The translations under genes and the position numbers were made by a program. Shown in pieces: positions 1,157 to 52,930 of a DNA stretch of 64,000 bases. Position 1 is the stretch's first letter, and each line of letters opens with the position of its first letter. The DNA comes from Blasia pusilla (Eukaryota): contig CM114271.1 in NCBI GenBank assembly GCA_050084515.1, positions 44,764,001 through 44,828,000 of the forward strand, given 5' to 3'. Below the pieces are notes generated by a model, which had not been told where the DNA came from, did no database searches, and was given only the letters and a program-made list of their open reading frames with translations.

Positions 1157-3567
1157 TTGCCTCGGACACTATAGCGAAGGGAGGAGCGCGAGAAGAGCGG
1201 AGAGAGCGAGAAGCACGTTCACCGAGAAATTGTCTCGTTTGACACTTTAAAGCGCACTGACACCTTCCGCTGAGGCTAGAGGCCGCTACTACATTTAGTA
1301 CTAGACGCGTACTACCACAGTGGACGATCTGTAAAATCAGCGTATTAACTGATTTGTTCGATATTTATTGCTTTTTCCGAAGTGAGAAATATTTTTCCCC
1401 TTACTTTTCTCGCGAGACTGGACAGCCGGGCACTTTTGGAAATTCCATGTTGGACTGATTTACACACGTACTAATGTTGTTATTATTTTATAAATAAATT
1501 AAGCCTTTAAGGGCTCCACATACCCACTCTCGTGGACTAACACATCTAGTCTTTATGATATCCGTATTAATACACAAACTTCTAAGCATTTCATCACTCC
1601 AATACATGAGGAATGAGTTTTCACATGAGGATATCCTCAAATAATCATTTTCTTCAATGCAATCCATGGTGATAAAGACCCATAACAAAACCCTTTTAAA
1701 CATTGTGGGTACAAGTCTTTGAAAATTCATCTTCTACAATGCTCTTCTCCAAATGGTTCTAGTCATCCATGTCCACCAAGTCAATGTAGTCACTAAAAAT
1801 GGCCATAGGAAAATATGATGGAAAAAATGGAAATGATACATGATTGTTGATATTATTCAAGGTTTGAATCCCCCCAATATCTCATCTCTAAGGCATACTT
1901 GCACAAAACTCTCTCCATGATTTTCTACCATCCAATTAAGATGATTCAAAAGCATAATCCCACAAGGTGAACAAACTCACCAATCTCCATAACTTAAGAA
2001 TCTAGCACCTTCTTGGGTGCATTAAAATGATAGAGCATACAATATAAATTGTATAAACATCTCCTTCAGGCAATCAATCTGGTTGGATGTACCATCGATT
2101 AAATCCACGTAATTCGGAAACTATTCCTTTATAAAACTAGATAAATTCAACATCAATTCATTTATTCCCCTAAAAGACTCCATCTTCTTCCTAAGAATAT
2201 TCGTGGGAACACTTAGGAGGAGGAGTTGAATTTTCTTACACAACATTTTTTTACCTTTTGAAGTTACACAGACACATTGTGAATCCCTCAACTGTGCTCA
2301 ATTTATTTCCCAAAAAACTCTCTCTCAAGTGGGTTTATCGCCTTATTCAAATAGTATATCTATCACATCCATGAGAGGATTGAGGTTTTCCCTTTATCTG
2401 AATTTTTTTCCATATCTTCTACAATTGCAATTGAATGCATATATGCAAATTACTTTGCATATAACGAATGTTCCACGCAAACATTAAAGTATCATCCTTC
2501 TTTCTCAATTCAAACTCATTTCCAATCAAATGCATATTAACGTGCTTGAATATCAATTACATCCCCTAAAAGATCTTATTCCTACATCAAAATTATCATG
2601 GAATCTCATTTGTATGTATATACTCAAATACTCTCTTATGCTCTTTAAAGAGGCGACATACACTTGGCTTCTTCTAAAAAAGATTCGTCCAAATTATTTG
2701 TAGGAAATTGCAAAGCCCCTATCTGACCACACATGGACACAATATTGGACCAAGTCCATTTCCATCGTATTATCCCTTTTTATTATCTATATTGATGACC
2801 TACAATACCTATTTGATCGAATCCCCAAAACGATGTTATCTTTCGATGCCCTTACCCTCATTCTTATAGAGTGAACTGACTTCTACTTCACGCTATTTTG
2901 TAACATATTTGTTATCACAGTCCTATCAAGCCATTTTTCCCTCCCAATCCCCACCATTGTATATCTTCATTTGTGAGATTTCTACAAAGACTACCTTTAT
3001 ATATTATCTCACTAAATTCATAGCTTACCTTCTATCTATTCCATATACTTCACTCAATTATTAAGCTTGTCTTTAAGAAAACTAGTTTTTAATTTATCAA
3101 AAAGTAAAGTAGAGAACTTTTTTTAAGCCCAACACTACATCCACAATCATTAACATGAACTCTCTATATTATTAGCATAGTTGTAAAATTAAAACCCTAA
3201 TTACTTCGAAATGTCATGAGAATCCCACTAATCATGTAATTTCCAAAGATCATGATCCTCATACTCTATCATAAAACATTCATAATGCTATAAATTCTTG
3301 TCTATTTATCCACATACCTTATCATCAATATCATTGTTTAGACCAAGTTGTAACCTTCATTAATTCTAAAGTACCCTAAACAAATTTTAACTCAACCTAC
3401 GTACCATATCTGTCGTCCCTTCGAGCCCTTACTCTCTCATACCCTTATGGGTCTACATCCCTTTGTGCAGCCTACGCCTATCTTGCTCCCGAACTCCAAA
3501 ACTCCTTCCTTACGAGCAACTAACATGACTTTACTCTTTCAGCTCCCGCTCCTCTTGATCATGGTCA

Positions 3568-3735
3568 TGGTTGTACAAAATGGACAAGTCTGTCCTTGGG
3601 ACAGATATGGACGGACAAGTTTGGACATGTCCATGGACATAGATCGCAAAACGTGGGGCCAACGTCTATAGTTCATGGTGGAAGGCAAGGTAAGGGCCAG
3701 TTGGGCAATAAGGGGGGATGAAGTGGAGGTGGAAG
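3568..3735 (+). repeat. Dispersed repeat, diverged copy of 30507-30675 (probable LTR/TE end fragment)
   Basis: ACAAAATGGACAAGTCTGTCC...GGGCAATAAGGGGG...AGTGGAGGT aligns by eye with ACAAAAATAGACAAGTCTGTCC...GGGCAATAAGGGGG...AGTGGAGGT at ~30510. Confidence 0.7.
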
Positions 3736-6212
3736 AAGGAAGAAATGAGAAGTGTGGATCACCAAGGCAAGTTGGGGGGATGAGAAAGAAGGGGAAGATG
3801 GGGCCCACATTGGCAAGTCCTTCTATAGGAGAGACGTAAGTCCACTCACTTTGTTCAAATACAACCTTGGTCACGAATACACCCACACGGTGCACTATGC
3901 ACCTCCTCTGCCCCGCCTTTGCACTATCTGACCGATGCCTACCCTGTCTCTTGGATGTTCCGTGCACACTTCCCTATGGAGCCTCATTCTGCTCCCTCCG
4001 CATCTTTGAAGAACTTTTATACTCAAAGGGTCTTTGGCCTTGGATCTCATCATCACCAATTGACTCCACTAGTTTCAAGAGTTTGTCACAAGTCTTTAGT
4101 AGCTCAACCATTTGAAAATGGTATTTTTACCATTGGGCTTAAGTCCACCAAAGAAGATCGATCTTAGGAAATGAGTTCCACTTTACACTTTACTCACATA
4201 CATACTACATAAGCGCTTAGCCCCCCACTAGCTTGAAATACAAAAACTCCGTATCATTCCAAAACTCTTGGTATGCTATTGTGAATCGATCTCCAATCAA
4301 CACTTTGGACTCCTCCTTACTCAAAGAAGACATAATGGCTGAATATTCCTCACATTGGGCGATCCACTATTCGAGCATATGATCTTGAACAAACGTGCAA
4401 GGCTCTCATGCATCCTTTAGAAATCCGATTGTCTTTTGGCCATTCCCCTTCAAATTGAAGCACTAATTTCATAAGGAATTCCTTGACATTACATGAATGC
4501 CCCATTTGTATGAATGGGATGGGAAAATTTATCTCACAAAATTTCCCGCAAGAGATGGATGCTCGGTCCATCTCTAACTCATAGATTTACTTACTTTGTT
4601 ACGTCATTCATTCTGACATGATCTCCATGAGGTCCACCACTTGAGCATAAAGTGGTGGTCATTCAAGCTTGAAGCTAATTTCCTCGTTGACATATCTTAA
4701 CTTACAACATTCTCATGCCTAGAACTTATTGGTATATCATAGACGCGAGTCTTCTTCTCTGGCTCATAGTGAAGTAAGACTTCTTCTCTTGGTTTTTGGG
4801 ACTTGATTGGAAATTTTGGGGACAGTCCACCCACCGTCACCATCTTCAAGCCCCGATTCATTCAAATCATTTCCTTTCCTCTTGTATCCCTCCCCAAGCA
4901 TCCAGTCACTACTTGTGACCATGAGGTCAAGCTCACTAAGAAAAGGCTATGATGCCATTTTTCATGCATCTAATCTCTTAAATATTTTATTTATGTGTCA
5001 TGGAAGCTTATGTTATGTAAGTGACTCGCTTGTTATTGATTTGCACCTAAGCACACTTATATAAGCCATGGTTTAGATCAACTGGCTAGCTTTGCGTATT
5101 CCGAGTGTGGATCTTGGGTAACCCCTCAAGTTCAATAGATCTAGATAAGGTTAGTATTCACCCCATCTGGATATATAGTTATCATAGACTTCTTTGAAAG
5201 TCTAGGAACTTGAAACAATGTGAGCATGCTTGATGGTCCTACTTAAATTGTCTAATGGATCTCAAACTAGTCTCTAATCAAAACTCAATTTTTGAGCCAT
5301 TGGTCAAGGTCCAAGTTTTGCGGCCATAAGTGGACTACCTACACTTGGCTTAGTGTCTAAGATATAATGCCAACCTCTCAATCGATTCCATTTCTTGCCC
5401 TTAGTTCAATTCCCCTATGGTTTTGAAGGAGGGGTTTAAGTTCCAAACTCTCTTGGAAATCCTCTTCCTTACATATGGTTATGGGAAATTTCACCCCCTC
5501 CCTTTATTCTCGGGTTGCTCCTTGTGACCCTCAACCCAAACTATCATTTTCACACTCGAGAATATTTGGATATGTATTTGGTTGCAAAGGTGATGCTTCT
5601 ACAAGTGTTGTAAGATCTACATCATATCCAAAAACATCTTGAACTTAGGGTCATCTACGCCATCTCCATGTCCCACACTTGACTCTAACATTGCCAACTT
5701 GCAATTATGAAATGAATATATTGTGCATCTCCCCCTAATTTCTATGCCCTCAAGAGTGAAACATTCCTCAATAAGGCTGGAACCATGTGTTACTCTTTCT
5801 TATGAGCAAAAGAGCCTCTACAAAGTTACTTGTTGTAGTTAGACACATCTCATTGTCTCATATATCTCTCTCCACATATAAGTATTCTTGAATGCAAAGA
5901 TCACTCTACAAAATACATGGTAGTCAATCCAATAATGATCCATCCAAAGAGATCCATCCTTACACCCTCCTTTGGATAAAACCATGAAATCAGTGTTTTT
6001 CCCAAAGATGAAAATATAACATCTCATGCTACCTTAGGCTTCTCTACTTCAACTCAAAGTGATGCAAGGGCCTCTCTCCACGTTGTGTGTATATGCCCTT
6101 ATGCCCTATACTGATAAAGCTTTGAACCCCATAAAGGCACCTTTCATATATAAGAAGGTGTGATCACGATACCCATTCTCTACTCAGGAAAATTAGCCTT
6201 GGTTATGTCCTT

Positions 6213-6693
6213 TGTCACATCTGAGTAGCCGATAGGCGGAGATCTATCGTGGATAGGGCGTAGGAGCCAGCGGACTATCTTGAGTGTAACTTTGTCCCAC
6301 GGTGTCGGATGAGGTTGGAGATAGGTCCATTGTGTCAGGAACGTCGTTTCTGAAAACTTTCATGTTTGAGGTCTTTCACAACCGGGTGACTTGTTGACCA
6401 GATCACCCGCCCCTGGTAACCTGAGCGCGTAGGTTACCAAGGGGATAGTTATTTTTAGGGGAAGAGCCTTTTGGCTCTTGCCAACCTATATAAGAGAGGA
6501 AGAGGGCTTTCCTAAGCCATCTTTCTCATGTTGGGCTATTGGAGCACCTCTCTTGTATGTGTGTGAGATAGGACTATGGTGCTAGCGTCCAGATTCCTTG
6601 ATAGCACAAGGTGGACGAGGCTCGATATGCCGATGTAGATTGAGGAGTGGAGTTTTAGGCCGGGTGTGCCATTTTTACTACTCTTTATTTTTA
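6213..6693 (+). repeat. Terminal repeat unit A1 (promoter/R/U5-like part of LTR)
   Basis: Direct repeat of 13502-13984; homologous to the start of copy C at 55988. Confidence 0.92.
6487..6531 (+). promoter_or_regulatory. TATA box (TATATAA 6487-6493) and predicted transcript 5' end (CATCTTTCTCATGT 6518-6531)
   Basis: TATA about 30 nt upstream of a motif complementary to the PBS; same layout in A2 and copy C. Confidence 0.65.
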
Positions 6694-6706
6694 CATGAGA
6701 AAGATG
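6693..6706 (+). promoter_or_regulatory. Self-priming-type primer-binding site ACATGAGAAAGATG
   Basis: Lies where A1/A2 homology ends; exact reverse complement of 6518-6531; lacks the TGG start of a tRNA PBS. Confidence 0.75.
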
Positions 6707-7856
6707 TCAGGGGGCTGGTGGGAATTTGTTGTTTGCAGGGAGGCAAGCGAGTTGCCTTGGTCGAGAGCCCCTAGAGACGCGTGTGTTGCGGGTGTTGGTT
6801 ATTTTTCTATTCGGAAGGCTGTGGGCGGAAGCACTATCCGTTTTTCTCAGATTTTGCTGGTGTGGATTGAAGGGGGACAACAACCAAGTGTAGTGTGCGG
6901 TGGGGCGTCGGGTGTACGCGAGTGAGGATGTCGAGAGAGAGAAGAAAAGGGCACGTTTGGATCTTGCAGCTGTCGAGGGACTGTCAAGTAAAGGCGACTA
7001 GGTTAGGTCGCGAAGGCTAGGTTTAGGGTGCGGAGGACGGGCGCGGCCACATGCAAGGGGCGCGGACAAGTGGACAAGTGCAAACAGAGGACGGGCGCGG
7101 CGACGGGCGAGGGGCACGGACGGACGGACACCCCCTCCCCCCGCGCATTTACTACCTTTTTTCGAACGTGGTTGGATGGCAACGTGGTAGGGTTCAGGAT
7201 GTGGTGACCAGGTTATCAGGTTGGAGTTTCTTACGTAGTTAGGAGAGTTACATGGTTAGGGTCAAGATGGACCCTCTACACCGATGAGTTGAAAACGGAG
7301 AGTTAGTGTCCATGATGGCGACGGGTTTTCCGCATCTATTGGCGAGAGGATTGACATGTTGGTTGAGGAGAGTGTTGTGTTGCGGACGTTGTCGTGTCAC
7401 ATGGAGGAGTACGTGTTGACGATGCCGTAGGTTGGAGGGCGTGATCAGGTTACCCATTCGAGCCCCCTTTTCCCACACTTGTCGTGTGTGATAAAGAGTG
7501 CTGGGTATCGGGTAGTAGCTGGTGCTAGGTGGGTGCAGTGATGGTGACGAGAGTAGATTCTTTTCTTGTGTAGCATGTTGGTGGATATACGGCGGTTGCC
7601 GCGTAGGGGTCGCATGTATGACTTGAGAGTGTCGCTAGGTTAGGTGAGTCAGTTGGGAGGCTCATGGTGAGCCCGAGTGTTGAGTGTACGTGAGTTCGGG
7701 TATGTCATCACGGGATTAATGTTAGCATAGTTGAGCTAGTGAGGAGTGTGGGAGACTCTCGATGAGTCTGAGTGCTTGAGCGGGTGAGACAGGGTTGTCA
7801 TCACGGCGTTCTTCCAGGGTTCGGAAGAACAGGGTAGTGCGAGCAGTAGTAGTGAT

Positions 7857-8710
7857 GTGACACGGAGTGGAGTGAGATACCGAGGGGTTATCAGTGAGGA
7901 GCTACCTCGACATCCATCCGTGGCTGGATTGTCATCACTAGACACCGGTCTAGTGACAAGATCGCAGACGGAGGCAGTATCGCTTGGCAGGAGATGGACG
8001 ACATGGGCCATCGGGGCATGCGTCATTTCTCGGGTGCAGTGGGCACCATCAACTTAGATGATTTTATCAAGGAGTTTGACACGTGGTGCGACTCCCAGGA
8101 GATACGGAACCCGACACATTTCAACCCTTTCATGGCATAGAAGGGGTTGTTCCAGCACTTAGAGGGTCCTCCGATGGATGACTGCATGGAGTTCCGATCA
8201 CTATATTCAGTAGAGATCGATGCTTGGAGGATGTATTGGGCTCTAGGGTATGTGTCCACTAGTGGTCGGGAGACATATGATGGGATTGTGAGAGGAGAGA
8301 GACCCACACCATGAGCCCGGAGACTAGATGGAGAGGAGGGCAGTGAGATAGGCGATGTGGCAAAGACCTCTGGTGGTAGAGGACCACCCAGCTTCAGCCC
8401 CACAGTGGAGTTCTTCCGATAGTTGGGGAAGAGCTACCAGGGCGTACGCAGCGATAAGCTTAAGAGTCTTCAGGATTTTCAGCGATGATCGGGTGAGAGT
8501 CTGAGAGAGGCATTCATGCGCGTGAGGAGGCTGATCATTGCTACGTATGGAGTGATTGAGGCGCCGTCAGTCGAGTATTGGTACGGGGTTCTAGACCGAG
8601 AACTACGGAGGAGAGTCCGAGATGCGATGCCGATTCACACAGCGAAGCCCACATTGAAGGTGGTCTTTGAGTTGTCTGTGCGTATTGAGCTCAACATGAG
8701 TGAGGAGCAG
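7857..8710 (+). pseudogene. gag: Gag (capsid-like) of copy A, with stops and frameshifts
   Basis: DDFIKEFDTWCD...KGLFQHLEGPPMDD and GESLREAF...YGVLDRELRRRVRD, matching copies B and C. Confidence 0.8.
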
Positions 8711-8956
8711 GTAGCGGATAGTCCCACGGAGAGACACGCCATGGCGGGTGTCTCTTCCCATGTTGGCGAGACCTCTTCACCATGGTGGGGTACAACTCGA
8801 GAGCTACAGAGGAGTGCCGTCAACCTCGTGAGGCAGGCGTGGAGTCATGCCTTTATCCCGGAGCAACAAGAGTCAGGTGGCGATCGGGCTTCTGGAGTGG
8901 AGACGTTGACCCCACTGGATACCACACCCATTGTGTGGCAGTGTCTAGAGGAGGGT

Positions 8957-9880
8957 GTTAGGGTGTTAGATCTCTTCAGAGGGATTAGCACAGAAGTGGT
9001 TGCAGTATTGCAGGGAGGCACACGGGTGCATCAGTACCTTTATGTGGAGAGAGATGAGACCGCGCGGCGAGTATCAATACGTCACGTGGTGAGATTGGTC
9101 CATAGGTATCTTGAGTTGTTGCTGGTATCTGCAGTACGGGGATATCAGCATACACTACCCACCGATATCTCTTTGGTGGGGGCGCAAGATCTGGATAGAG
9201 TTGGCACCATTCATTTGGTGATTGTTGGATGGCCATGTCAAGGTCATTCGTCAAGTGGCCGAGGATTTGGATTGCAGGATCCGAGGTCAAGGATATTTTG
9301 GGAGATGTTGCGAGTAGTACGATACTTGCAGGAGAGTCAGACATGTTCTCCAACGTACATTTTGGAGAACGTGTCATTGTTGGGAGACACTCGTGCATGT
9401 GTGATGACGAGTGTGCATCAGGTAAGGTCCTGGTTGGGACTTGCTGTGTTGTTAGATGCAGCGAGAGTTGGGTGGCATGCCCATCGTCCATGACTCTGGT
9501 GGACGAATCTGATACCATCAGAGGTACTGAGTCGAGCATACGATGGAGTCCAGAGAGCACCACATCTCACAATGGATGTTATTTTGAGCTCAAGGCGTCG
9601 ATCTTAGGTGGTGACACGGGATGATAAACCACCGTTGGCCATGGCCAATAGGATGGGGGAGTTGAGGGCAGCCTTACCTACATTGGTGAGCTTCCCAGCA
9701 TCCCATGCCTTTCGTCCAGGAGGGCCAGGCATGATTTGGGATGAGGTGACCGAAGCATTGGAGGAGCCTACAGCAGATGAGCGCGAGCGTGCCATGGGGT
9801 TCGCTATCGGTACTACGGCGGTGCCAGGGATGACTGAGGCATCCCGGAGATAGGTGTTGGGGCAGGCGATGGACCTCAAC
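8957..9880 (+). pseudogene. C5 cytosine DNA methyltransferase domain (DNMT3-like) in polyprotein of copy A
   Basis: Motif I VLDLFRGIST, II YVE, IV VIVGWPCQG (Cys codon 9236-9238), VI ILENV, VIII AHRP*LWWTNL, IX ERERAMGF, X RR*VLGQAMD; one frame broken by 3 in-frame stops. Confidence 0.92.
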
Positions 9881-10206
9881 TATCTCACATGGATAGTTAG
9901 CCTAGCTATGGTTGAGCAGAAACGGATGCGAGTGTCATCCATGCCGTCACGTCCACGAGTTGGACCATTGCCTACAGGGTATGTACAGGCATTGGCTGGG
10001 GACGGGACAAGGAGAGATAGGCACCCATGGACTTCCTGGGACGTCGTTCGAGCGGAGAGTGCGAAGGCGGCCAGAGTAGCATATGTTCATTTTTTGGATG
10101 TGGAGCATGGTGTACAAGGTCAGAGTGGAGTGGCTGTTGCGGAGGTGGCTAGGATTGCTACATAGCAACCAAAGCCGGAGGTTGCGTCCCCCCGAGTGAG
10201 ATCACG

Positions 10207-13144
10207 ATGGAGACTTGGAAGCCTGTGATAGGTCTCAAGTTGATAGGAGGAGAGCAACGGCGAGTTCATAGGACTCTGAGAGGGCATGTCAGTTGTTTTG
10301 CCTTCAATATGAGAGACTTGGGTACGCTGAAGGGTCCCGGGATACAGATTGAGTTGGCTAGTGATACGCCGATCTTTCGTCGACCCTAGAGGTATTCCGA
10401 TATGGAGCGAGCCTTGATTCATAGCAGGAGTCAAGACTTGTTGGAGGCAAGAATTGTGGAGTTATCACATGGGGAGTATGCATCTGCCACAATCATACCG
10501 GCGAAGAAGGATATGTATGGCAATTGGACGGATAGGCGGATGTGTGGAGATTACCGTCCTATCAACCGACAGATTAGGTCAGATCGGTACGCCATGCCTA
10601 CTCTTGAGGAGATCTTTTGATGCGGTAGGGCATGCAAAGATCTTCAGTACTTTAGATTTTGGTGCTGGCTATCATCAGCTTCCTATCAGGTTGGAGGACA
10701 GGGAGAAGACAACATTATGGGGGATAGATCTGTTTGGGAGAGATTGCTTGTATCAGTGGCGGTTCTTACCATTTGGGTTGAAGAACGCGCCTGCAGAGTT
10801 TCAGAGAGTGATGGATAGGATTCTACCTGGCTTGGATTTTGTACAATGTTACATAGATGATATTCTTATCTTCAGTTCCACGATTGAGGAGCATGAGTGA
10901 CACCTGGAGGAGGTGTTTCGGCGATTGCAATTACATGGACTGAAGTTACATCCAGGCAAGTGCAGATTCTTTTAGGAGCAGATTGAGTACTTGGGACACA
11001 CCATATACCCAAGTGGGTTAGGCGTTCAGCAAATGAAGGTAGAGGCTCTTGCGCAAATTCCACGCCCTACAGATATGAGTCGAGTCCGAGCATTTCTTGG
11101 ACTGGTGAACTTCTATCGACAGCATGTCAAGGGTTTTAATGCGATCGCAAAGTCTTTGATCTTGTTGACGAGACTTGATCAGGTTTGGTTGTGGGGAGAT
11201 GATCAAGAGCGAGCATTTCAGGAGCTCAAGGACAGGTTGACGTCCTCATCCATTTTACAGAGACCGGTTAGGGGTCGCCCATTCCAATTACATACGGATT
11301 GGAGCATGTTGGGTCTAGGAGCAGTGCTTACTCAGAGGGATGATGAGGAGAGGGAGTTCGTGGTGGCTTACACGAGTCGATCGAACAACATTGTAGAGGC
11401 GAAGTACAACTCCTACCAGAGAGAGTGCTTGGCTGCAGTGTGGGCCGTGGCACATTTCAGGTGCTATTTATTCGACAAACCTTTCACACTTATCACTAAT
11501 CATCATCCGTTGAGGTGGTTGATGGAGTCCGACAAGCTTACGGGAAAGCTTGCTAGGTGGGCTCTATTATTGCATGAGTATGAGTTTGAGGTGGTTCGTA
11601 GGCCAGGTCGGCTGAACCAGGATGCGGACAAGTTGAGTCCTAACCCATGTCCGAGACAAAGAGACGACACACGAGCTCGATGGCACGGAGAGAGTGATGA
11701 GGAGATGGTGCTCGGGTGGCATGCATCTGCCTATCTTTGTTGGTTGACTATGGTTGGTCAGCCACAGGTGATGACTCTAGTGGTGGGGTTGGATGATGAG
11801 TCTTTGGATCCGGAGGTCAGTGAGGAGGCGACAGGTGGTCGTGATATCCATGACAACGTGGAGGTTGTGGAGTTCTTGCGCACTGGCGTCATAGCGAGCA
11901 CAGTGAGTGCTAGGGAGCGGGATCGGATCCTACAGCGAGCCAGGAGGTTCAGGTGGGAGGGGACTCACATTTTTCGGGTATGGGGAGATGGTAGGATACG
12001 AGTGGTATCTCATCCTTCCCAACGAGCACGTGTAGTGCGACATGCCCATGAGGAGTTGGGACATTTTGGAGTAAAGCGTACTTATAGCTTACTCGAGGTT
12101 CAGTATTGGTGGCGCGGTATGCATACTAGGGTACAACAGTTTGTGGCCAGATGTATGGTATGTGATAGAGTGCGAGCATCCTTCAATGCTCCCACTCCGT
12201 AGTTACATCCTTTTCCAATTATGGGTTTAGGTTATCGGTGGAGTTTAGACTTTGCGGGACCATTGCCATTGACTAGGCGTCATCATAGGTACGTGTTGGT
12301 CATGGTGGAGCATTTCTCCAAGTGGATAGATTTGGTGGTACTACCGGAAAAGGCGAGCAAGGGAATAGCTTATGTGTTTCTAGATCGTGCGCTTAGTCAC
12401 TTTGGTGCACCGGCGGAGGTGTTGACTGACCAGGGTAATGAGTTCAAGGGAGAGTTTCAGGCCTTGTGTGATCAGGCGCTAATAGATCACCGCACCACGT
12501 CCAGAGATCATCCTGAGGCGGATGGGTTGGCGGAGAGAGTGGTACAGACGGTGAAGAGAGGGTTACGCAAGTATGGCTTGTAGCGGGGACAGTTGAGGGA
12601 GTGGGACCTACAGTTGCCATGGTTGGCTATGGGTTATCGCCTTAGTCAGTAGGCATCCTTGGCGTCATTTTCACTGTACTTTTTGCTCTTTGGGAGAGAT
12701 CCAGATTTACCTGCAGCCATTCGACGTGACATGGCGGAGGTGTTAGATCTTGATGATCCAGATGTGTGGGTACAAGCATGTTCTCGAAGGGCGGAGGCTT
12801 TTCGTAGAGTTATGCCTATGGCCTTTGAGAACTTAGCTATTGCTCAGTATAGAGATACATTGAGGTACGCGACCATTCGTGGATGAGGTTATCGTCCAGG
12901 GATTAGGAGGTTTCATCCTGGAGATTATGTGTATTTGCAGCAAGCGGCACCCACGACACTAGATGTCACTACAAGACGCACGATCCTACGTGTGCGCGAG
13001 GTATTACCGACCGGAGTCCTCATGTTGGAGGGACGGGATGGTATGGTTTGGAAGGATCATATGCGCAATTGTGCGCCATGTCATCTTTCGAACGTAGATG
13101 GGACAGTGGATCCAAGCTTGGCAATGGTACCTGCATGCTTGAGA
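10207..13144 (+). pseudogene. pol: Reverse transcriptase, RNase H and DDE integrase of copy A
   Basis: RMCGDYRPIN, LPFGLKNAPAEFQ, YIDDILI; LHTDWS...ECLAAVWA; HEELGHFG..CMVC, WSLDFAGP, TDQGNEF, GLAERVVQ. Confidence 0.95.
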
Positions 13145-13279
13145 TGTATGTTGTGCGGATCTACGAGGGGTGCAACCACCATGTTGGTATGTGATGGTTG
13201 TTCTCGAGGGTGGCATATATCATGTCTGACCCCCCCTCTTGATGTAGTTCCCAGGGAACGATGGATGTGTCCGAGATGT
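13145..13279 (+). other. PHD finger (C4HC3) at integrase C-terminus, copy A
   Basis: CMLC...MLVCDGCSRGWHISCLTPPLDVVPRERWMCPRC. Confidence 0.92.
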
Positions 13280-13352
13280 GTATAAGATAGTAGGTCACGT
13301 CAGAGAGATGTGATATTTTCTATCTGGAGTTGGAGGGATCCAACTGCCAGCT

Positions 13353-13362
13353 AGGGGGGCGG
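13353..13362 (+). promoter_or_regulatory. Polypurine tract of copy A
   Basis: AGGGGGGCGG directly before unit B1; equivalents at 43006-43016 and 63694-63703. Confidence 0.85.
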
Positions 13363-13499
13363 TTGTGTGATCTCCATGTATATGTATGAGTTGATTTTTG
13401 TACATGTGTGGATCGACCAATGTGTGGGGAAGATTGGTGTTGTGTGGTGTAGATGTGACCAGCGATGTATGTTGTGTAGCGATATGTATGCGCACGACA
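13363..13499 (+). repeat. Terminal repeat unit B1 (137 bp, U3-like)
   Basis: TTGTGTGATC...GCACGACA, repeated at 13985-14121. Confidence 0.92.
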
Positions 13500-13501
13500 A
13501 C

Positions 13502-13984
13502 TGTCACATCTGAGTAGCCGATAGGCCGAGATCTATCGTGGATAGGGCGTAGGAGCCAGCGGAATATCTTGAGTGTAACTTTGTCCCACGGTGTCGGATG
13601 AGGTTGAGGAGAGGTCCACTGTGTCAGGAACGTAGTTTCTGACAACTTTCATGTTGAGGTCTGTCACAGCTGGGTGACTTGTTGACCAGTCATCGCCCCT
13701 GTAAGTAGCTTTGTCTTGCGCAGTTACTAAGGGGATAGCTATTTTTAGGGGAAGAGCCTTTTGGCTCTTCCCAACCCTATATAAGAGAGGGAGATGACTT
13801 TCCTAAGCCATCTTTCTCATGTTGGGCAAGTGGAGCACCTCTCTTGTATGTGTGTGAGATAGAACTAGGGTGCTAGCGTCCAGATTCCTTGATAGCACAT
13901 GGTGGACGAGGCTCAATATGCCGATGTAGATTGAGGAGTGGAGTTTTAGGCCAAGTGTGTCATTTTTACTACTCTTTATGTTTA
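13502..13984 (+). repeat. Terminal repeat unit A2
   Basis: Direct repeat of 6213-6693, separated from B1 by AC. Confidence 0.92.
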
Positions 13985-14121
13985 TTGTGTGATCTCCATA
14001 TATATGGATGAGTTGATTTTTATACATGTGTGGATCAACCCTTGTGTGGGGAAGATCGGTGTTGTGTGGTGTAGATGTGACCAGCGATGTATGTTGTGTA
14101 GCGATATGTATACGCACGACA
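13985..14121 (+). repeat. Terminal repeat unit B2 (137 bp)
   Basis: Direct repeat of B1; followed by TSD CCTT. Confidence 0.92.
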
Positions 14122-16859
14122 CCTTTGTGTGGATATGGCTGGTAATCACATGTGTTGGCCAAGTAAGGATGTTACAAAATACTACTAGAGTCGGTATCAT
14201 ACTTAGTCAATGCTCTATAACTCCACTAGTAAATTGTATTCGGAGTAAAATAACATATCCATATCCATAGTGCCATTCTAGAGATGACTACCTTTGAGTG
14301 AGAGGTTGTAACACTATGCTCACACTCACATAGAGTTGTGGCAAGCGAGAACATCCTGACATGCCCAACTCCCAATACGGAAAAATCTATGCCTGAAGAC
14401 AATGGAAATCCATTGTCTTCAACCAGAGGTACAAGTCTAGTATCATGTGCTCGACCATATCTTATTGAGATGAAATTAAGAGTGAGCAACCATATTTCTT
14501 GATAGCCCACAATAAAGTTGGTATGTTTTTTTGGTGGAACATGTTGATCTATAAGTCATTAAGATAGAGGTTGTTGCAATGTGCGATTCGAAGGAGATAC
14601 CACATGCATCAACCATAAGAACTACATAGCCACGTACACCTAGAGAGCATGTAGTGACACATTGAGTGCAAAGAGGCTATAGAGAACCAGTGTATCAAAG
14701 ACCCATACCAATTTTTTGCAAGGAAAAAAAATTAGAGTTCACATGTTGGTCATGGGCATAACTATATCATTAGCAAGACTGTATATGCCATGGTAGTGTA
14801 TGTGGATAAGGGGTGCATATGGAGTCCCAACCCATAGGCTAGAGGGACTTTAGAAAGGGGATTTTCATTGCGAACATCATCAATGTTGTGGTCATTATCG
14901 GGATAGGCGTTCTATCTTATATCCTAAATGATGCCTATAAAGAGTACTTGATTAAGCCAGAGCATCCAAAGGAGCCAAAGGTTGAGGCATAGGTGGCCCT
15001 AAAGGATGATGTGGTGGCATGTATGACCAAGGAGGAGGTAGATGCCCACCAACTAGATGAGTCGAGGGACACCTTGGGCATGAATCCGAGATGCCAGCTC
15101 AGATAACTAAAGGAGTGTATTGTAGTAATGGCACTCCAATTTCTTAACGCAAGATTTGTAGCATCTACTTCCTATGGTAGTGGCAAGGATCACGAGGATC
15201 CCAAATGGATGTGCGGGCTCGCCCATGTTAAGGAAACCAACATTGTGATAGAGGAGTAGCCAAAAAGTTGGACCCACAACAAGGTGATACTTGTAAGAAA
15301 ACTAGGTTTCCCCACTCATTTACCTTAGCCAAGGCTATGAGGATCCCAATGATGGTTTGTGATTACACCTCTCAAGGTTTAAGAAGAGTTGGCATAGATG
15401 CATGATAATATAGGGAGATTTGAGTAGATTGACATCCCATGGTGGAGCTTAGGAGGAGCCTATATGGGTGAAATGCAAGGGTGTCCACCGACTTGCTTCA
15501 ATCACCCTATCATCAATAACATATTCTAGCCCTTCATACAAGCTGATGAATTGGTCTATGTGTTCATTATGGGTTGCATCATACGATTAGTCATATGGTG
15601 CATATATTCTAGACACCAATAAAGCCTCCATGGCTTGATCTCTACTACATGCAAAGATGATAACTTATGATAGTTGTCCACCGATGGACCCTCCTAGTAT
15701 TGATATATCATTTCCGAGGAAATAAATGAGTTGTTTTATATGTGCCTTCTGGTGCATGCATATCAACACGCTCCATAATCTACAATGAATTTGTATAGCT
15801 CCAAGATATAAATTAAACTCGAGCATCTTTACAAGATCCACCTCCCACAATGATCTCTTATTTCCCACAAAGTGAAGTATGGTGCCACTAGTGGATCCCA
15901 ATGGCAAGCTTGGGAAATCAATCTCTTGTGTCCATACATTCATAACTCTCAATTCATATATATCCTTGCCTATCAATACAACTCCCAACTACCCAACACC
16001 TTGAGAAAATCCTCACATGTGTAGGAGGGGAGAAAAATTGGATAAATTGGGTATAGTAATAATGACAATGTTACTTTTGAAAAGTGGGAAATTTCATCCA
16101 TCATGTTAGAGCCAAGGTGACTTTCTTGGCACTAACACAACTTTGAGATTAATGATAATGTTATGCCGCTACGAGGAGCACATTATAACGATAGCAACAA
16201 TTATACGGCATGGCTAGAAGAGACACAACACGATAAAAAATAGCAACTATGGTATAGCAATAATAAATGCAATACATTGGGAAAATGAGGACATGCTATA
16301 ACTATGAGCAACATGGATATGACTACTTGTGTAACATCACACCCATGGGCATCCAATGCATCTATAACAATTCCCCCAATTCCCCGATGAGTGTCCTAAC
16401 GAGCCAAACTCATTTAAGGTTATGGGTGGAACAACATACTATGGTGTGCTTATTGAGTGAAGATCTTTCCATACCTATCGAGTTGATTCGCATCACAAAA
16501 TAGTAGCAAATCACATATCAATGAAGATCTAGAACAAGACATTGTAGAAACTCATCATCGATTTTTTATTTTTTATTTTTTTTTTTGGGGGGAGGGGTTG
16601 GTAATTACAATGTTGCACACTTAGGATTCCTACCTCCTTGAAAAATCATCCTCAAGCTACCAAAATCCGACATCCGCCCTTCTCAAGAACATTGAGCAAA
16701 TCCTTTCTACTCCCATGTGAATTACTCCTTATATTTATGTCTAAAAAATATATTCTCACATATTAATGGGCATCACAACATAAAATAATATTATAGTATA
16801 TATATGTTTGTAATGAAATGATAGGCATTATGGGAGGAAAACATTAAATAACCAAACGA

Positions 16860-27886: not shown

Positions 27887-30506
27887 TTGAGAGACGGACG
27901 GGCAACGGGGAAATGCGGAGGTTGGGGACGGGTGAAATCGGATGGATCCTTATCCTCCGCTCTTCAATGATGCAGGTCAATGATTTTCAAGTTGGGCTCG
28001 AAATTGCGTACGATGTTGAGAGATCTTTTCGTTGCTATCGAGAGAAACAGGAGGAACAATTCTCGGGTCCAGAAAGCGTCCCGTTTCCGATTCCCAGACC
28101 TCCTCTGTGGTTCCGGAAACAAACAGGACAACTCCCTGGAGAAACCCGATCCTCCCTCTTCTCACCCTCTCGCTATCGCTCTCTCTCTCTCGCTCGCTCG
28201 CTCGCATGCAGGGGAGAAGATGGATCAGGTGGAAGACCTGGAGCGGGATCCGACGACAAAGGCTAAAAGAAACTCAATCAACGACTCCGTAAAGCGTGCG
28301 CGGTAGCCCTCATCCTGATCCCGTGGGCGTGGGTGGGGATTGGAAGCAAGGCATCTCTCTCGTCCTCACTACCGATGCATGCACGTTGCTCCAATCGAGG
28401 GAACGGGTCGCTCTTGACACGGGAGACAAGTTGGTGGAGATGTGGCTTGCGAAAGGAAACTCACCAAACACCCCAGCGCTTGTTTGGTGAGTTTCCGCTC
28501 GTTTGTTTGTTCGTTCGTTCGCTCCTCCCAACTCCCACGACCGCTTCTCTTTGGTCGTTTGCTTTCTACCGCTTTATCTGCTAATAATGTCGCGCGGCGG
28601 CTCTTGTCACGCTGCGAGATTAGGCTTCCCGTCCGTCCGTCGCCCTTGTGCTCACCTTCCGTTCTCTTAACCCCCAGAAAGGCGGTCAATGCCCTCGGCC
28701 TCGGCTACCGCCCTCGCCTGAAACTTCTCGCCACCATCAAGTCGTACGTTTTATGTCTCGCTCTTCTTTTCATTTCACGTACGTTGATTCTCGTTCTTTC
28801 TTGGCCATTAGCCGACGGTTATTAGTACCCCTCTATCTAATATCTGTCCATGCTGCGAGTTCATGGAGGGCTCCATTCCATCCATGGCTATGCTCGCCTA
28901 TGCTCTAGGTCATCCTCTCGAGCTCTCATCGGGAAGACAAAAGGCCGTACTATCTTAACAACAAATATCTATTTTGGTATTCTAACATTTCTTCGGGCTT
29001 AGGAGTCGATAGGACCATGCTTTCCAAATACCATGCGGTATTCGCTTTGTGATTCCTTAACCCCGTTTGAAATCTGGAAGGTGGTATTAATGCATCGGGA
29101 AATAATAATGTAGCTTGGAGGTGGTTTTGTAAATCTGCTATATTTCTCTCCACGAAATTTTTATATGGGGAAAATTACATCCCAATATGAAATTCTACCT
29201 CGAAATACACTTTCTTTTTTCTTCACTATCTAACTTATCCATGTGTCTATCACACCAATCTAATAATTAATTCTCCTCCCCAATTCCCCCCTCTCAAGGC
29301 CACACAAAAGTTAATGTTAGATCTATTACTTGGTGTTTTCGGGTCCCCATGATGCAATGGGCCATAGGAATCTTTCTTGACCCCTCCTCAAAAGGTTCAT
29401 TCCTCTTTGTCTCTATGGTCTTAGTCAATATGTCCCATCCTCCCTTACCCTAGGCTTATCTGTTGGTAAGAATGGAGAGGGTAGGAGGAAGCTTTGTCCT
29501 TTCCTCCTCCCATCCCTTGTAGCCTTTATCGCCTTCCAAATTTACCTCCTATATCTCATCCCATAGAAATATGGAATTAAAAACTTTCTTATGTAAACTT
29601 CCGCTATTGAAAATGTATATCGCCTCCTCTCCGCCTACGGAATTCAACACTTCAAATTCTTATTAAAAAAAACTCTTCATGAGGAAATCCTGCCTTTTTT
29701 TAAATTTCTCCTTTGATTTCTAATTCCCTTTATTGAAAATTCAATTTTCGGAATAAAAATCAAACACTTGGAAAATCTATTCCTTATGAATCCCTCAGAA
29801 AATTTATCCATCTCTCCTTCTTCTTACCTTCCCCAATTGAAATAAGTTCAACCTTATGTCTATTCCCCACATTTGCAAATGAAACACTTAAAAAAAAAAT
29901 CTTTATAAAACCCTCCCTTTTTGAAAATTTCTCCATTTTTCTCTTCCCCTTGCCAACTAAAAATTAAACATTATCTCTTTCCCCCGTTTCTAGAAAATCA
30001 AACATATAAACAAGGTTTCCTCTGGAAGCTTTCTAATGTTGAAAATTTATCTATTTCCCTCTTCCCCTCCCCTAGAGGTTTATCAAGCCTTGCATATACA
30101 TCTATATTATCATTTGTGCTAGCCATGTTTATTTGTGTTTCTATTTTAGAATGGCCCTATTTTGGGGTCTTATTTGACATTTCGGATAGTAAAAATGGCC
30201 ATAATGTGGTTTGCTTGATAAGGATTAGATTCGCCACCAATATGCATAAGTGAACCAGGCAATCCTTCAAATAGTGAGGGAATATGACCATAAGAGATTT
30301 GAACTCAGTTTGTGATTGTTGAGCTTACTAGCATGAAGAGCCCCATGCTTTAATTTTTCCTGGTTAATAATCCAAGTCTATTTTCTAAAAGACTAGCCTT
30401 GGATTGACCATGACCTTTGAAATAGTTATGTGAGAGTTTGTCGATTGCGAGAGCTTCATTATGTTAATATCATAGGGTGCGATAGAAAGTTATTGGAATA
30501 TTTCAT

Positions 30507-30675
30507 TGTTGCACAAAAATAGACAAGTCTGTCCCTAGAACAAACATGGACACACAAGTCTCGACATATCTACGGACATGAATTGTAAGAGATGGGACCC
30601 ATAGTTATAGCTTATGGTTAAAGGTAGAACAAGGGTGGGTGGGGCAATAAGGGGGGGGGGAGGGAGTGGAGGTAG
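30507..30675 (+). repeat. Dispersed repeat, copy of 3568-3735
   Basis: Aligns by eye with 3568-3735; lies just upstream of a gag-pro fragment. Confidence 0.7.
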
Positions 30676-31055
30676 GGGAATATATATCAGAGATAAACGG
30701 ATATATATATAAAATGATAATGAGAAGATGTTTCCTCACCTTACATATGATTCGTCTCATTTTAAGCCTAGATATTACTACATCTTTTAGGATATGGTGG
30801 AAGATAGGGTGTTGGAATCCAAATGTCCTCATGATGGATTATCGATGTGGCTTAACAATATTATCTGTCATTAAAAATGGAGTTAGTGATATATGTCATT
30901 TCTACTTCAATATTACACGAGAAAGATATGATTTTCTCGTAGCGACTAGATATAGGAGTAATGATATAATATGGTGGATAATAATATTGGTGAATGGAGT
31001 GACGGCGATGGCGTTGAACAACGTAGAACCAATGCCATAACTGGTGGATTAGAAT

Positions 31056-33200
31056 GTGTCGGGTTTATCCAAGGAGATGGATCATTACTGTCGTACGAGG
31101 CAACGTGACTCATTAGCAGTTGCCATCGCCTCTGCAGAAGCTTACAAGGCCTCGGAGAAGTCCTGGCGGACGCGGAAGAAGAGAGACAAGCTCTTCATCA
31201 GAGGAGTCTTCGCCGTCTTCCGACTCTGCGGATACCTCGACAGGCAGCACTAGCAACGAAGACTCAGAGTCTAAGGAGGACTCCAAGGGAAACAAGAAGA
31301 AGAAAGCAAGACGCCCAAGGCGGTCTTCATCCTCAGGGAAAGGGCGTAGGGACCAGAGCGCGAAGACAGAGAGCCGTAAGTTGGTAAGTCCCACCCGTAA
31401 GACTAAGAAGGATGGGGAGAAATCCGCCATCAGTGAATTGACAAAAAAATGGATGAATTAAAGGTACACTTGGCGGCCCAAAAGGATCCTCGAAGAAGGG
31501 CGGGTCTTATGCGGCTTAACATATGGTGCAGTGCTTGTGGGACTCAAGGGCATACAGTGGCGTAGTGCCCGTTGCAACGCGATTTACGTTGGATGCAAGA
31601 AGAACCCTCAAGGGAAGAAGGATGGTATGAAGCAGACCACTGGGAGGGATGCTATGCGATTCAGGAAGTTCCTGGGGCTAGTACTTCTCGTAGGTGGATC
31701 CCCAGATACGTGCCGCTCGAATATGGAGACCAGAGGCCTCTACGTTAGATCATGGGACCCGTAGCATTCACCCCATCCATCAAAAGAAATTGCTACAATA
31801 ATTGTAGGGCAGTCGATCACTGGGCAAACAACTGTCCCAACCCAAAGAGACCAATGGGGTTGAATCCCATGTGTGGTAATTGCAAGAAGGGAGAACACAC
31901 TACGGTGGAGTGCCCGGAACCTCAAGTGCCGCGACTCTTGGTCAAATATGTCACCACCCCATCAGCACCAACCAAAACCAAGAATGATGTTAATGTACAG
32001 CTAGTGCGTGTGGAAGATGTCACCTCACCAAGGATGCCAAGGAAGAAGACAATTAAGGAAGAAGACCCTACAACAAAGATCGAAGAAGAGTCCTCAGATT
32101 GGCCCGAAGACATTCTCAACAAGGTTTTCGTAGTGGAAACCAGGTCCAAATCTAAGAAGAAGACTGTGAGAGCGGAGACCCCAAAATCTTCATCATCTCG
32201 AAGTGTTCCGTCTACGAAGAAACCGGTTGAGACGTTTCGAGCGGGGAAAGCTATTTTGAAAGGTGATGAGGACCCGGATTTTGATCGTAACCATCCAAAG
32301 TACTTCCATCCAGAAGTAGCGAAGCGGGTTTGTAAACAAGTTCAGGAAGAACAAGCAAGGGGAGTCTTCGCGCAAGGATCCTTACACAAGCACAAAGAGG
32401 TAAAAATGGAGACCTCGCTAGCTTCCCTTTTGGTGATGGAAGCTTACAACTTGCTGAAGGATTTAGCTGCCAGCCAAGCAAATATATCCTTATTGCAGTT
32501 ACTTATGGATAATCCCATTTATGGGAAAATTCTCCAACATTTGAAGGTTGGACATAAGAAGAAGGCAGGAGCAAAGAAGCTCCCAGTGGTGGATTTGCTT
32601 CGCATAGAAGTTGAAGACATTGGTGCGCCGCAAGTGGAAGTTGAAATTGAAGGGCATACCATCAAGAAGGTCCCTATAGATTTCGGAAGTGGGATCAACA
32701 TCATGACAGAGCAGACCGCGCATGCTTTGGGTTACACTAAGTATGAACCCACCGATAAGTATTTACGCATTGCGGATAAGTCTCGTAAGCGGCCCTTGGG
32801 GCAGCTTACCCATATACCCCCTATGATAGGAGAGGTGCTATTTCTAGTAGACTATCTGGTCCTTCAGCCTTTGGCACTCACAGGTTACCCCTTACTTGTT
32901 GGAAGACTGTGGCTTTATGAGGCTCAAGTCAATACGGATTGGAAAAGACGAAGATTCGCTTTCTAAGCTCCATCCAATACTTCAAAGAAGTTGGTGAAGT
33001 TGTCTTGGAAGTCTTGGCCGTCTCAGGGAGAGACATCTGCCACGGATGAGGGGTATACCTCGGATCAAGACCTGGAAGTTGATACAGAGTCCTCGTCCTA
33101 TGTGTGCTATCTGGAGTGCTATGAGATAGATGAAGAATTTCTACAATGAGAGCGAATCAAGTCTCGTCCAAGGGAGGAGGAGCTCAACGAGTTTTACAAG
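31056..33200 (+). pseudogene. Truncated Ty3/Gypsy gag-protease of an unrelated family
   Basis: Zinc knuckles CSACGTQGH, CYNNCRAVDHWANNC, CGNCKKGEHTTVEC; protease VPIDFGSGINIM...LLVGRLWL; no RT follows. Confidence 0.8.
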
Positions 33201-33638: not shown

Positions 33639-34177
33639 TATCGTACGTCTACTCTCCTTGAACGTTAATCTTTATTGTTGTGAAAGCGTGTGTTCAGTAG
33701 GTCACTCTCTCAACGATGATCTGCATCCAAACACGCACTCACGTTAGTCGGGTTTGGATCAATCAACAGTTCTAACTCGCCAAGTCCTCGACTCGGCCTC
33801 TCATGACGCTTGTCATGACCATACGGATTATGTCGTAGAGTATAGTGTGCTAGTAGAGGCCATACCTTATGTAGGGCCATAATGTCTAGCTAGAGATGCG
33901 GTTTCATACATAGGGTTGGGGGTTACTCAGTTGAGGGTGACTTTTCCAGTAGGGCCCGCTCTTAGGTTGGAGGATATAGTGTGGAGTGCACTCAAAGAAC
34001 AGTTAGTTCTTTGAGTTGACCCTGTTGCGTTGGGAGTTAGCCTTGGTAGTGAGTAGAGCTACTGGCTATGGTGGTTCCCGCAAGCTTCGACCTGGATTAT
34101 CCCATCGTGGAGTGGGTTTGGCTTGATTGTATGTGATTCTATACGTATTTTATGACAATAGGTCTTTCAGGGATTTC

Positions 34178-34190
34178 ACTCAAAGAACTA
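34178..34190 (+). promoter_or_regulatory. Self-priming-type PBS of copy B (ACTCAAAGAACTA)
   Basis: Exact reverse complement of TAGTTCTTTGAGT at 34004-34016, about 30 nt after ATATA at 33974. Confidence 0.65.
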
Positions 34191-35694
34191 GAGTAGATCG
34201 ATGGTAGCTTCGATTGTGGATCAGTAGGATCTGGTTAGGGCTGATTGTGTACTCAGCTGTGGATGTTCGTGGCTTGTGGCCTATGTTGGAGGTGGAAATC
34301 TGGTGCATGATTGGTTGGGAAAGAAGCGCCTTGTTGAGAACTTTCCAACGCGCTTTAGATCGCCAAATTTTGTCAAGGGAGTTGGAGTTATCAAGGATTG
34401 AAGATTTTGTTTCGTGTTCGACGGTTTTTTGATATGGAGAGCTTGGAGTGCGGAAGCTCTATTGAAGTTCATCCAGATCGGGTGAGAGGTTCCTATTGCT
34501 ACATGTATTGTGATCTCATGTGAAGCTATCTGGTTGAGTGTGTGGAGCGTTGCGGAATCTGGGCGGAAGCGTTGTCCAATTTGCGATTCTGAAGGTGAAT
34601 GGATAGCAAGTTTGTCTGATTTTTAGCTTGGAGTATGGAGCTTGGTTGTAGCTGATTTTTTGTGGAGAGATAGCTATGGTGGCCAATTGAATTTTGGTTG
34701 AAACAGATTCAATTTTGGTTGATGTTTTGTGGAGTAATTGCTGATCAAAAGTTTGCGGACTAGCTCAAGGTTTGGCTATGGTGGACAGCAGATCGGAGGG
34801 GTTGGTTGGTTGGTTGGTGATTCGTCCATTGTTGGAGACGCCTATCCCATTGGGGGCGCCCTGGTTGGGCCTCTCTCCATAGCGAAGCATGGCGAAGCGT
34901 GGCGAACGGGGCATGTCTCGAGCATTTTGAGGCTTTGAGGCAACTGGTGGTAGCTCGGGGCGAGTGGGTGTGAGAGGCGGAGTAAGGAGCAAGGAGCAAG
35001 TAAGCAAGCTTGCTTGCTTGGGCGTGAGGCAATTTTGCTGGATTTGTAATTTGAGTGTTGCATAAATGATCACCCATCTTTGGGCTATTCTGCCTGGAAG
35101 ACGCTTAACTGCTAAGTTCTTAACTATGCTAGTGTACACACTGGTGTAGCTCATTTGGTGTTGTTTGGAGATGTGTTAAGCGCTTTATGCATCTCAGGTT
35201 TTTGGTTGATGGACCTCTAGCGCATAGTACGGTGTAGCCTCTTCATGCACGTGATATTTTCAGGTGCTGCGAGTCCGACCAACACGTCATCGACCCGCAT
35301 CGTAGTAGCTAGTGCGTTAGAATTGTGTGGTGGGTTTTGTGGATTTAGGGGGGCGCCACGTTTGGTGGATTGTGTTACCTTGATTTCCATTTGCGATTGG
35401 AGGGTTATCGTTGGACTTCCTATGTTTGGATCCCCTCCATCGTTGCTTCTTGCTTGCGCGCCCATTGTTAGAGTTGACGCTGATTTCCAGAGTAGTGTTA
35501 CTCCTGTGTGCTACCGGTAGTGAGGCTGGAGTGATGACCAGTAGACCGTGGGAGGCTTCTTGTGGTGATGATAGGTTAGGTTGCCTACACCCATAGCTAG
35601 TAGAGCTAGAATAGTACATCGACATCGGCGTCACTTGGTTACTTAGTGATGGTAATTTGGTGGTGGTGCGGCATCGACGTTAGTCATCACGGAG

Positions 35695-49570: not shown

Positions 49571-49713
<143 letters not shown>

Positions 49714-52738: not shown

Positions 52739-52930
<192 letters not shown>

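Follow-up and report, generated by a model that had tools for sequence, protein, structure and literature searches.

We analysed a 64,000-nucleotide stretch of Blasia pusilla (GenBank assembly GCA_050084515.1, contig CM114271.1, positions 44,764,001 to 44,828,000 of the forward strand; hereafter the window, with positions counted from its first letter). It holds three copies, A, B and C, of a retrotransposon family in which a short motif about 30 nt past a TATA-like box is the exact reverse complement of the stretch that directly follows the repeat (X) containing the box. From sequence analysis, we assign the paired motifs, with a probability of about three in four, to a Gypsy-DNMT3 retrotransposon family in which they would serve as self-primer and primer-binding site (PBS). 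The geometry shared by four unrelated sequence classes, the pairing of each copy with its own site and the fossil junctions found at the duplex edge, together with PBS starts other than TGG, therefore lend good in silico support to Tf1-like self-priming, which the original prediction had put forward.

Paired motifs in the window and in four sequence classes

In copy A, the 14-nt 5' arm CATCTTTCTCATGT (6518-6531) is the exact reverse complement of 6693-6706. Copy C carries an identical 14-mer pair, also exact (56293-56306 versus 56462-56475), and the 13-nt 5' arm of copy B, TAGTTCTTTGAGT (34004-34016), is the exact reverse complement of 34178-34190. The arms are spaced 175 (A), 169 (C) and 174 nt (B) from start to start, and the TATA-like boxes start 31 (A, 6487), 29 (B, 33975) and 31 nt (C, 56262) upstream of the 5' arms. 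The exact complementarity, the three spacings and a TATA box some 30 nt before the 5' arm had all been claimed in the original prediction and are borne out here. When the repeat body was searched by script for its longest complement to the 30 nt across the repeat end, precisely these three pairs came out. In RNA folded from the 5' arm through the PBS, pairing of the arms had a probability close to 1 in all 8 copies folded. In the fold of copy A from 6518, the pairing probability was 0.93-1.00 at nt 1-10 and 0.26-0.37 at nt 11-13.

Relatives of the family were collected from metagenome contigs. The scan gave 446 relatives, from which 80 loci were kept, and the layout was surveyed in the 44 loci of at least 7.5 kb; duplicate loci (L003/L024, L069/L074, L046/L047/L052, L061/L062 and L071/L072) were counted once. 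A scan of viral contigs gave no relative. The arm geometry is shared by four sequence classes that are unrelated to one another. Class 1 consists of window copies A and C. Class 2 comprises copy B, L038 (17 nt), L030, L007 and L071, as well as L003, which retains the site only in its second X repeat (X2, as opposed to the 5' repeat X1). Class 3 is made up of L064 and L051 (15 nt), L047, L070 and L069, and the sole copy of class 4 is L014 (16 nt). In all classes the 5' arm begins 26-33 nt downstream of the TATA box. Counted from the end of X, the PBS of classes 1 and 2 starts at a distance of 0-1 nt, and that of class 3 shares 3 nt with X; the class-2 PBS is present in 10 of 10 aligned rows, one of them with a G-to-A change. 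X1 and the sequence following it are present in 16 distinct copies, of which 12 have kept the duplex. A TATA-anchored scan for further classes found none that was new, apart from a pair in L006 (9522-9690) consisting of a TATA box, a 12-13 nt arm 34 nt further on and its complement 120 nt downstream. This pair lies outside the Gypsy-DNMT3 copy of L006 and may be another self-priming element.

Pairing between the arms was scored with a fixed-register script, because a MAFFT alignment across classes set the arms out of register. The matrix excluded L003 X1, L005, L025, L008, L004 (PBS deleted), L014 and the rearranged L010. In this 13-bp register, 12 copies pair with their own PBS at 11-13 of 13 positions (mean 12.3), as against 5-8 of 13 (mean 6.0) for the 90 cross-class combinations, and at least two Watson-Crick pair types occur at 10 of the 13 positions. 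The covariation noted at the outset in three copies thus holds over more of them, and complementarity is present in the other subfamilies, the pairing being kept in each of the four classes.

These numbers bear on the simplest alternative, in which the pairs would have arisen by chance or as artefacts, either of misassembly or of palindromic rearrangement. None of 2000 shuffles of the 30-mer attained the observed pair length, and this was so for each of the copies A, B and C. Distinct inverted repeats of at least 13 nt with arms 100-230 nt apart number five in the whole window, compared with 0.16 on average and no more than 2 in a set of 100 first-order Markov simulations; three of the five are the A, B and C pairs. 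Metagenome contigs of repeat families can indeed be chimeric, L014 being a case in point, but the pattern recurs among separate insertions that differ in their flanks and target duplications and is also seen in raw host DNA reads, and we regard chance or artefact as extremely improbable. The other two inverted repeats, both exact and 13 nt long, lie outside the three copies at 706-718/852-864 (146 nt apart) and 20599-20611/20777-20789 (178 nt apart).

The PBS could also bind a host tRNA, or an internal tRNA fragment as in half-tRNA priming, with its complement near the TATA box being incidental. Half-tRNA PBSs have been reported in plant copia lineages (Neumann et al. 2019, PMC6317226). Such priming would give no reason for a matching copy in the R part of the repeat, and it would have to accommodate four unrelated PBS classes, every one of them with an exact complement of its own in the corresponding position of the element. 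Moreover, the PBS starts in no class with TGG, the complement of the tRNA 3' CCA end, and we hold tRNA priming to be very improbable. An ARAGORN scan for tRNA genes, which covered the window and the loci only, gave 0 hits in the window and 1 doubtful hit in the 44 loci.

Split repeats, fossil joints and the function of the stem

Copy A has the layout X-int-Y-AC-X.Y, where int stands for the part between the repeats and AC for a 2-bp spacer (NN in general), and copies B and C have the layout X-int-Y (Table 1). The full X1...Y1-X2-Y2 layout is found in 7 distinct outside loci (L003, L038, L047, L054, L064, L069 (=L074) and L070), and Y1 and Y2 lie about 455-490 nt apart in 11 further loci. Elements begin with TGTCA... 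at the left of X and end with ...CACGACA at the right of Y. In copies B and C and in L005, L007 and L030, there is no terminal repeat at all, the left terminus being X and the right terminus Y. The repeat that the original prediction had called a long terminal repeat (LTR) with its U5 part is in fact one half of a split direct repeat rather than a conventional LTR. A sensitive BLAST search found no 3' repeat for copy B, because its form is X-int-Y. A polypurine tract precedes Y1 and is conserved in nearly all listed loci, with L012 as an exception. Locus L014 reads int-Y-GT-X-PBS-leader (8520-9317), which is the topology of a 1-LTR circle or a tandem array, or else an assembly collapse.

Among the 13 copies having both ends, the 4-bp flanks are identical in 9: CCTT in A, GCTT in C, TCTC in L003, AAGG in L038, TACA in L005, ATTA in L007, TGTT in L030, GGTC in L064 and CCAA in L070. 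They match at 3 of 4 positions in L047 and L069 and at 2 of 4 in L054 and in copy B (CGCT on the left, GACT on the right). The pattern CACGACA-RY-TGTCA, which describes the passage from Y to X, matched 31 rows over 28 loci and the window, three of them off target (L061 at 9902, L062 at 7499 and the window at 51483). In the 28 on-target rows the RY spacer is GC 13 times, AT 6 times, GT 5 times and AC 4 times; the ancestral Y-X junction is therefore a perfect palindrome.

At the X.Y joint, the base that immediately precedes the PBS is followed first by 0-2 nt from the 3' terminus of the polypurine tract and then by Y. The joint that dominates in the host connects 6692 to 13362 and is carried by 336 DNA reads with 178 start points, besides minor variants with extra T residues; it is this joint that sets the end of X1 at 6692. 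The class-2 joint reads TTTTC-AG-TTGTGG in 3 copies and has -AA- in 1, and L003 (=L024) carries a 21-nt filler. The class-3 joint, CAAT-ATACATG, is found in 8 of 10 distinct copies, with a one-base difference in the other 2. Judged by this composition, the X.Y joint matches the right end of a conventional cDNA joined to its left end. For classes 1 and 2, this would place the start of minus-strand DNA at the base flanking the duplex on its 5' side; for class 3, it would lie 3 nt within the maximal duplex. The joint may be made anew or inherited, and X-int-Y copies may either be primary insertions or have arisen by Y-Y recombination. We set aside the idea that the joint is purely templated in the manner of DIRS elements, since we infer that this does not fit a primer adjoining X1.

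A single rearranged locus, L010 (3361-3878), is of a different kind. Downstream of X and its PBS stands a 176-nt copy of the left part of X (3361-3536) in reverse-complement orientation, with ...GGTCATGACA as its last letters before the flank. Although an anecdote, this fold-back looks like an integrated cDNA made when the 3' end of the PBS annealed to the 5' arm and was extended.

These fossils help to decide between priming and another function of the same stem. The arms could form a structural or regulatory panhandle in the 5' leader, serving to mask the poly(A) site in the 5' X, in packaging or in translation control, while another primer is used. Since Y follows X2, the stem is possible only at X1 and so distinguishes between the X copies, and the GU-rich Y lies just past the U-rich end of X2. 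Priming alone, however, predicts where the first DNA base lies, which is exactly the inner stem edge for classes 1 and 2 and, for class 3, a point 3 nt within the stem, and the L010 fold-back resembles DNA synthesis primed from the pairing of the arms. We thus consider a panhandle with a separate primer unlikely, if less so than a tRNA primer.

Reads from the host provide independent information on the family, which is very high-copy: depth reaches about 200-650-fold per strand over most of the element (about 1% of one DNA run). From 13499 and 13500, respectively, 1121 and 599 DNA reads exit into sequences whose mutual agreement is 0.33-0.34, and this low agreement indicates many different insertion flanks. 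Sense RNA is present in 3 RNA runs and spans both the Y-NN-X and the X.Y junctions. The leader of copy A (6831-7384) is almost unique in host DNA reads, with about 5-11 reads per strand versus several hundred elsewhere in the element, and is a private or strongly diverged segment.

Several observations weigh against self-priming. None of the listed peaks of RNA read starts lies near 6518, with a depth over X1 of only about 1-14, and the R part of X is not deeper in RNA than the U3-like part, though a terminally redundant RNA predicts that it should be. The 5' arm has been lost in 4 of the 16 copies, L003 X1, L005, L025 (deleted) and L008 (partly), and L004 has lost its PBS by deletion. As the arms are invariant within each class, the covariation represents about three class switches and not 12 independent events, and L014, the only representative of class 4, may have arisen by collapse of a repeat family during assembly. 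Finally, the 5' arm of classes 2 and 4 doubles as the 3' half of a perfect local hairpin (window 33990-34016, L038:1832-1858 and L014:8823-8850) whose 5' half repeats the PBS core and which is a possible competitor of the PBS; one arm is deleted in three class-2 copies (L003 X1, L005 and L025), and classes 1 and 3 are without the hairpin.

Coding content and known relatives

By their domain content, the window copies are Gypsy-DNMT3 elements, with a DNA methyltransferase (DNMT), reverse transcriptase (RT), RNase H, integrase and PHD finger in that order. Copies A and B were assigned to this group because a C-5 cytosine DNA methylase domain sits in their pol region. In copy A this domain (PF00145) lies upstream of RT, and the region from RT to the PHD finger is split by stops into several open stretches. 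Copy B gives matches to RNase H, to the integrase zinc finger and core and to the PHD finger; its RT is below the Pfam cut-off, and so is its weak methylase match (38769-39728). Both copies are degenerate, with 109 stops in one frame of A. The PHD finger (PF00628) comes after the integrase core (12887-13282 in A, 42453-42839 in B), is common among the environmental relatives and occupies in A and B the position of the chromodomain of chromoviruses, so that the chromodomain typical of Tf1/sushi elements is missing from its place. The self-priming put forward by the original prediction is kept, but the anatomy has to be revised: with a PHD finger, split repeats and a DNMT, the copies are neither elements with ordinary LTRs nor Tf1/sushi elements with a chromodomain.

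No tyrosine recombinase was found in 41 scanned open stretches of A and B, and PF00589 occurs in none of 120 relatives, among the matches listed. The nearest proteins are from liverworts, namely a Calypogeia protein (65% identity) and Marchantia proteins with PF00145, and the matches to a window open reading frame further include a retrotransposon protein of Klebsormidium nitens. Relatives combine PF00145 with RT, RNase H and integrase, and Ty3 is the nearest solved structure. The coding strand is G-rich and C-poor in 6001-14000, 34001-42000 and 56001-60000 (GC skew +0.2 to +0.34). Differences between the window copy and the host reads are mostly transitions, which fits deamination of methylated cytosines.

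Table 1. Positions of the annotated features of copies A, B and C in the window
Copy	Feature	Position	Strand	Basis or remark
A	Left target-site duplication CCTT	6209-6212	+	identical 4 bp at 14122-14125
A	Repeat X1, start TGTCACA, with TATA box 6487-6494 and 5' arm	6213-6692	+	91% identity to 13502-13984
A	5' arm, putative self-primer, 31 nt past TATA box	6518-6531	+	exact complement of 6693-6706
A	PBS (predicted), directly after X1, no TGG start	6693-6706	+	complementarity
A	C-5 cytosine DNA methylase domain, degenerate open stretch	8489-9490	+	PF00145, E 9.6e-08
A	RT, RNase H, integrase zinc finger, integrase core, PHD finger	10418-13282	+	PF00078, PF17917/PF17919, PF17921, PF00665, PF00628
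A	Polypurine tract AGGGGGGCGG	13353-13362	+	immediately before Y1
A	Repeat Y1, end ...CACGACA	13363-13499	+	94% identity to 13985-14124
A	2-bp spacer AC within near-palindrome GACA-AC-TGTC	13500-13501	+	regular-expression search across loci
A	Repeat X2	13502-13984	+	91% identity to X1
A	Repeat Y2, right terminus of element	13985-14121	+	repeat of Y1
A	Right target-site duplication CCTT	14122-14125	+	matches 6209-6212
B	Repeat X, class 2, 5' arm 34004-34016, left end TGTCATGACC	33811-34177	+	73% identity to class-2 X of L038
B	PBS (predicted) ACTCAAAGAACTA	34178-34190	+	complement of 34004-34016
B	Polypurine tract 43006-43016 and repeat Y 43017-43121, no X2-Y2 after	43006-43121	+	
C	Left target-site duplication GCTT	55984-55987	+	identical 4 bp at 63843-63846
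C	Repeat X, start TATCACA, TATA 56262, 5' arm 56293-56306	55988-56461	+	
C	PBS (predicted)	56462-56475	+	complement of 56293-56306
C	Polypurine tract 63694-63703, Y 63704-63842, target duplication GCTT 63843-63846, no X2-Y2 after	63694-63846	+	

Other repeats are present in the window. A different family occupies 30503-32966, just upstream of copy B, and contains an open stretch of 405 aa that weakly matches an aspartyl protease; a fragment of it (72% identity) lies near 3565 (3565-3730). Self-BLAST matches between 49588-49710 and 52742-52940 are shifted against each other by 2 nt, and this points to dinucleotide repeat tracts separated by about 3 kb.

The family shares features with several known systems. 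As in Tf1/sushi elements, the PBS stands directly after the repeat, is complementary to the predicted start region of the transcript and has no tRNA-type TGG, and the order RT-RNaseH-integrase is that of Ty3/gypsy. The primer duplex of Tf1 is 11 nt long. Unlike in Tf1, the duplex here is 12-17 nt long, a PHD finger replaces the chromodomain, a DNMT lies in pol and split direct repeats take the place of two LTRs. Self-primed reverse transcription is described for Schizosaccharomyces pombe Tf1 and for Tf1/sushi elements (Lin & Levin 1997, Butler et al. 2001 and Atwood-Moore et al. 2006, as cited in Neumann 2019, PMC6317226), and it has been predicted for the Tcn1 clade of mosses and clubmosses and for the copia lineage TAR (Neumann et al. 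2019, PMC6317226). Like the window family, these are land-plant LTR retrotransposons, including some of bryophytes, with predicted self-priming; unlike it, the Tcn1 elements, which belong to the chromoviruses, have ordinary LTRs. Neither 'PHD' nor 'methyltransferase' occurs in the main text of the 2019 study.

The layout also has precedents. KnitGypsy-Dnmt3 of Klebsormidium nitens combines DIRS-type repeats with a Gypsy domain composition (de Mendoza et al. 2018, PMC5890265, legend to Fig. 4c), and 'streptophytes (Gypsy-DNMT3)' are named in a 2026 preprint (bioRxiv 10.64898/2026.05.21.726589). KnitGypsy-Dnmt3 and the window family both have a DNMT within a Gypsy pol and the A-coding-B-A-B repeat layout; the host of the former is Klebsormidium, whereas the window sequences are closest to liverworts. 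In the main text of the 2018 article, 'primer binding' and 'PHD' occur 0 times, and the passages considered here mention neither a primer or PBS nor a target duplication or junction palindrome. Split direct repeats of the form A1-int-B1-A2-B2 are known from Ngaro- and PAT-like DIRS elements, and for DIRS-1 the primer is given as unknown (Malicki et al. 2020, PMC7192593). Such elements often carry a methyltransferase, as the window family does (SymbioDIRS-Dnmt3, PMC5890265). Both groups have the X-int-Y-X-Y layout and imply a circular or end-joined intermediate. The window family differs from DIRS elements in its DDE integrase, in the lack of a detected tyrosine recombinase, in its 4-bp target duplications and in its visible candidate primer and polypurine tract. 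To our knowledge, DIRS elements lack target-site duplications made by a staggered cut.

A possible replication route and its significance

The signals described above can be arranged into a replication cycle. Transcription would start about 30 nt past the TATA box in X, at or just before the 5' arm, and the first 12-17 nt of the RNA would fold back on the stretch directly after X. RNase H would release the 3' end of these nucleotides, as in Tf1, and minus-strand DNA would begin at the last base of X. The plus strand would then copy the primer and so rewrite the PBS from the 5' arm in each cycle; the arms would stay complementary by this means, which would explain the perfect matches. Plus-strand DNA is expected to begin at the G-rich polypurine tract before Y, with the consequence that the cDNA would have Y-NN-X LTRs. 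Integrated copies end at TGTCA.../...CACGACA with 4-bp target duplications and not at the ends of such LTRs. We therefore propose that the ends of the cDNA join, or that a 1-LTR circle forms, and that the DDE integrase may open the GACA-NN-TGTC palindrome inside the LTR with a 2-nt stagger, an opening that would yield X-int-Y-NN-X.Y or X-int-Y.

The complete route, in which a streptophyte lineage of the Ty3/gypsy type makes self-primed cDNA with Y-NN-X LTRs, joins its ends and has its integrase open an LTR-internal att palindrome, is more tentative than self-priming itself, and we put it forward as a possibility somewhat short of even odds. Its integration step is called into question by the absence of the mirror form X.Y-NN-X-int-Y from all 13 of the 5' ends, X-int-Y-NN-X.Y being seen 8 times. 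Random cutting of 2-LTR circles, which predicts that mirror form, was for this reason downgraded as a full explanation of the layout.

A partial parallel is offered by retroviral integrase, which cleaves the palindromic junction of 2-LTR circles in foamy virus and HIV-1 (PMC1180852, PMC1905944). The proposed route shares with these viruses a DDE integrase and an internal CA..TG palindrome formed from two element ends. The retroviral junction is a side route, has a 4-bp spacing and is made by ligation, whereas that of the window family has a 2-bp spacer, is inherited in the LTR and is apparently the regular site.

The Gypsy-DNMT3 layout, described from Klebsormidium in 2018, and self-priming in Tf1/sushi are already known. 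As far as our searches reach, four things appear to be new for this family: its pair of self-primer and PBS, its target duplications of 4 bp, its palindromic site of integration and the reading of X.Y as joined cDNA ends. In the literature we found no account of priming, target duplications or a junction palindrome in Gypsy-DNMT3 elements, though supplements may list termini or PBS types.

Together, these results extend predicted self-priming beyond the Tf1/sushi, Tcn1 and TAR lineages and add mechanistic detail to Gypsy-DNMT3 elements, which are of interest for the epigenetic conflict between transposons and their hosts. The replication of split-repeat retrotransposons has so far been a paper model. 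In this family, a self-primer/PBS pair, a polypurine tract, a cDNA-end joint, a palindromic integration site and target duplications are readable together, and these cis signals give testable predictions; because the family is high-copy and transcribed, tests are practical in the host. If the proposed route is true, split-repeat elements would gain their first defined primer, plus-strand origin and integration site. It would also produce DIRS-like split repeats with target duplications and so provide a mechanistic bridge between LTR and DIRS retrotransposons.

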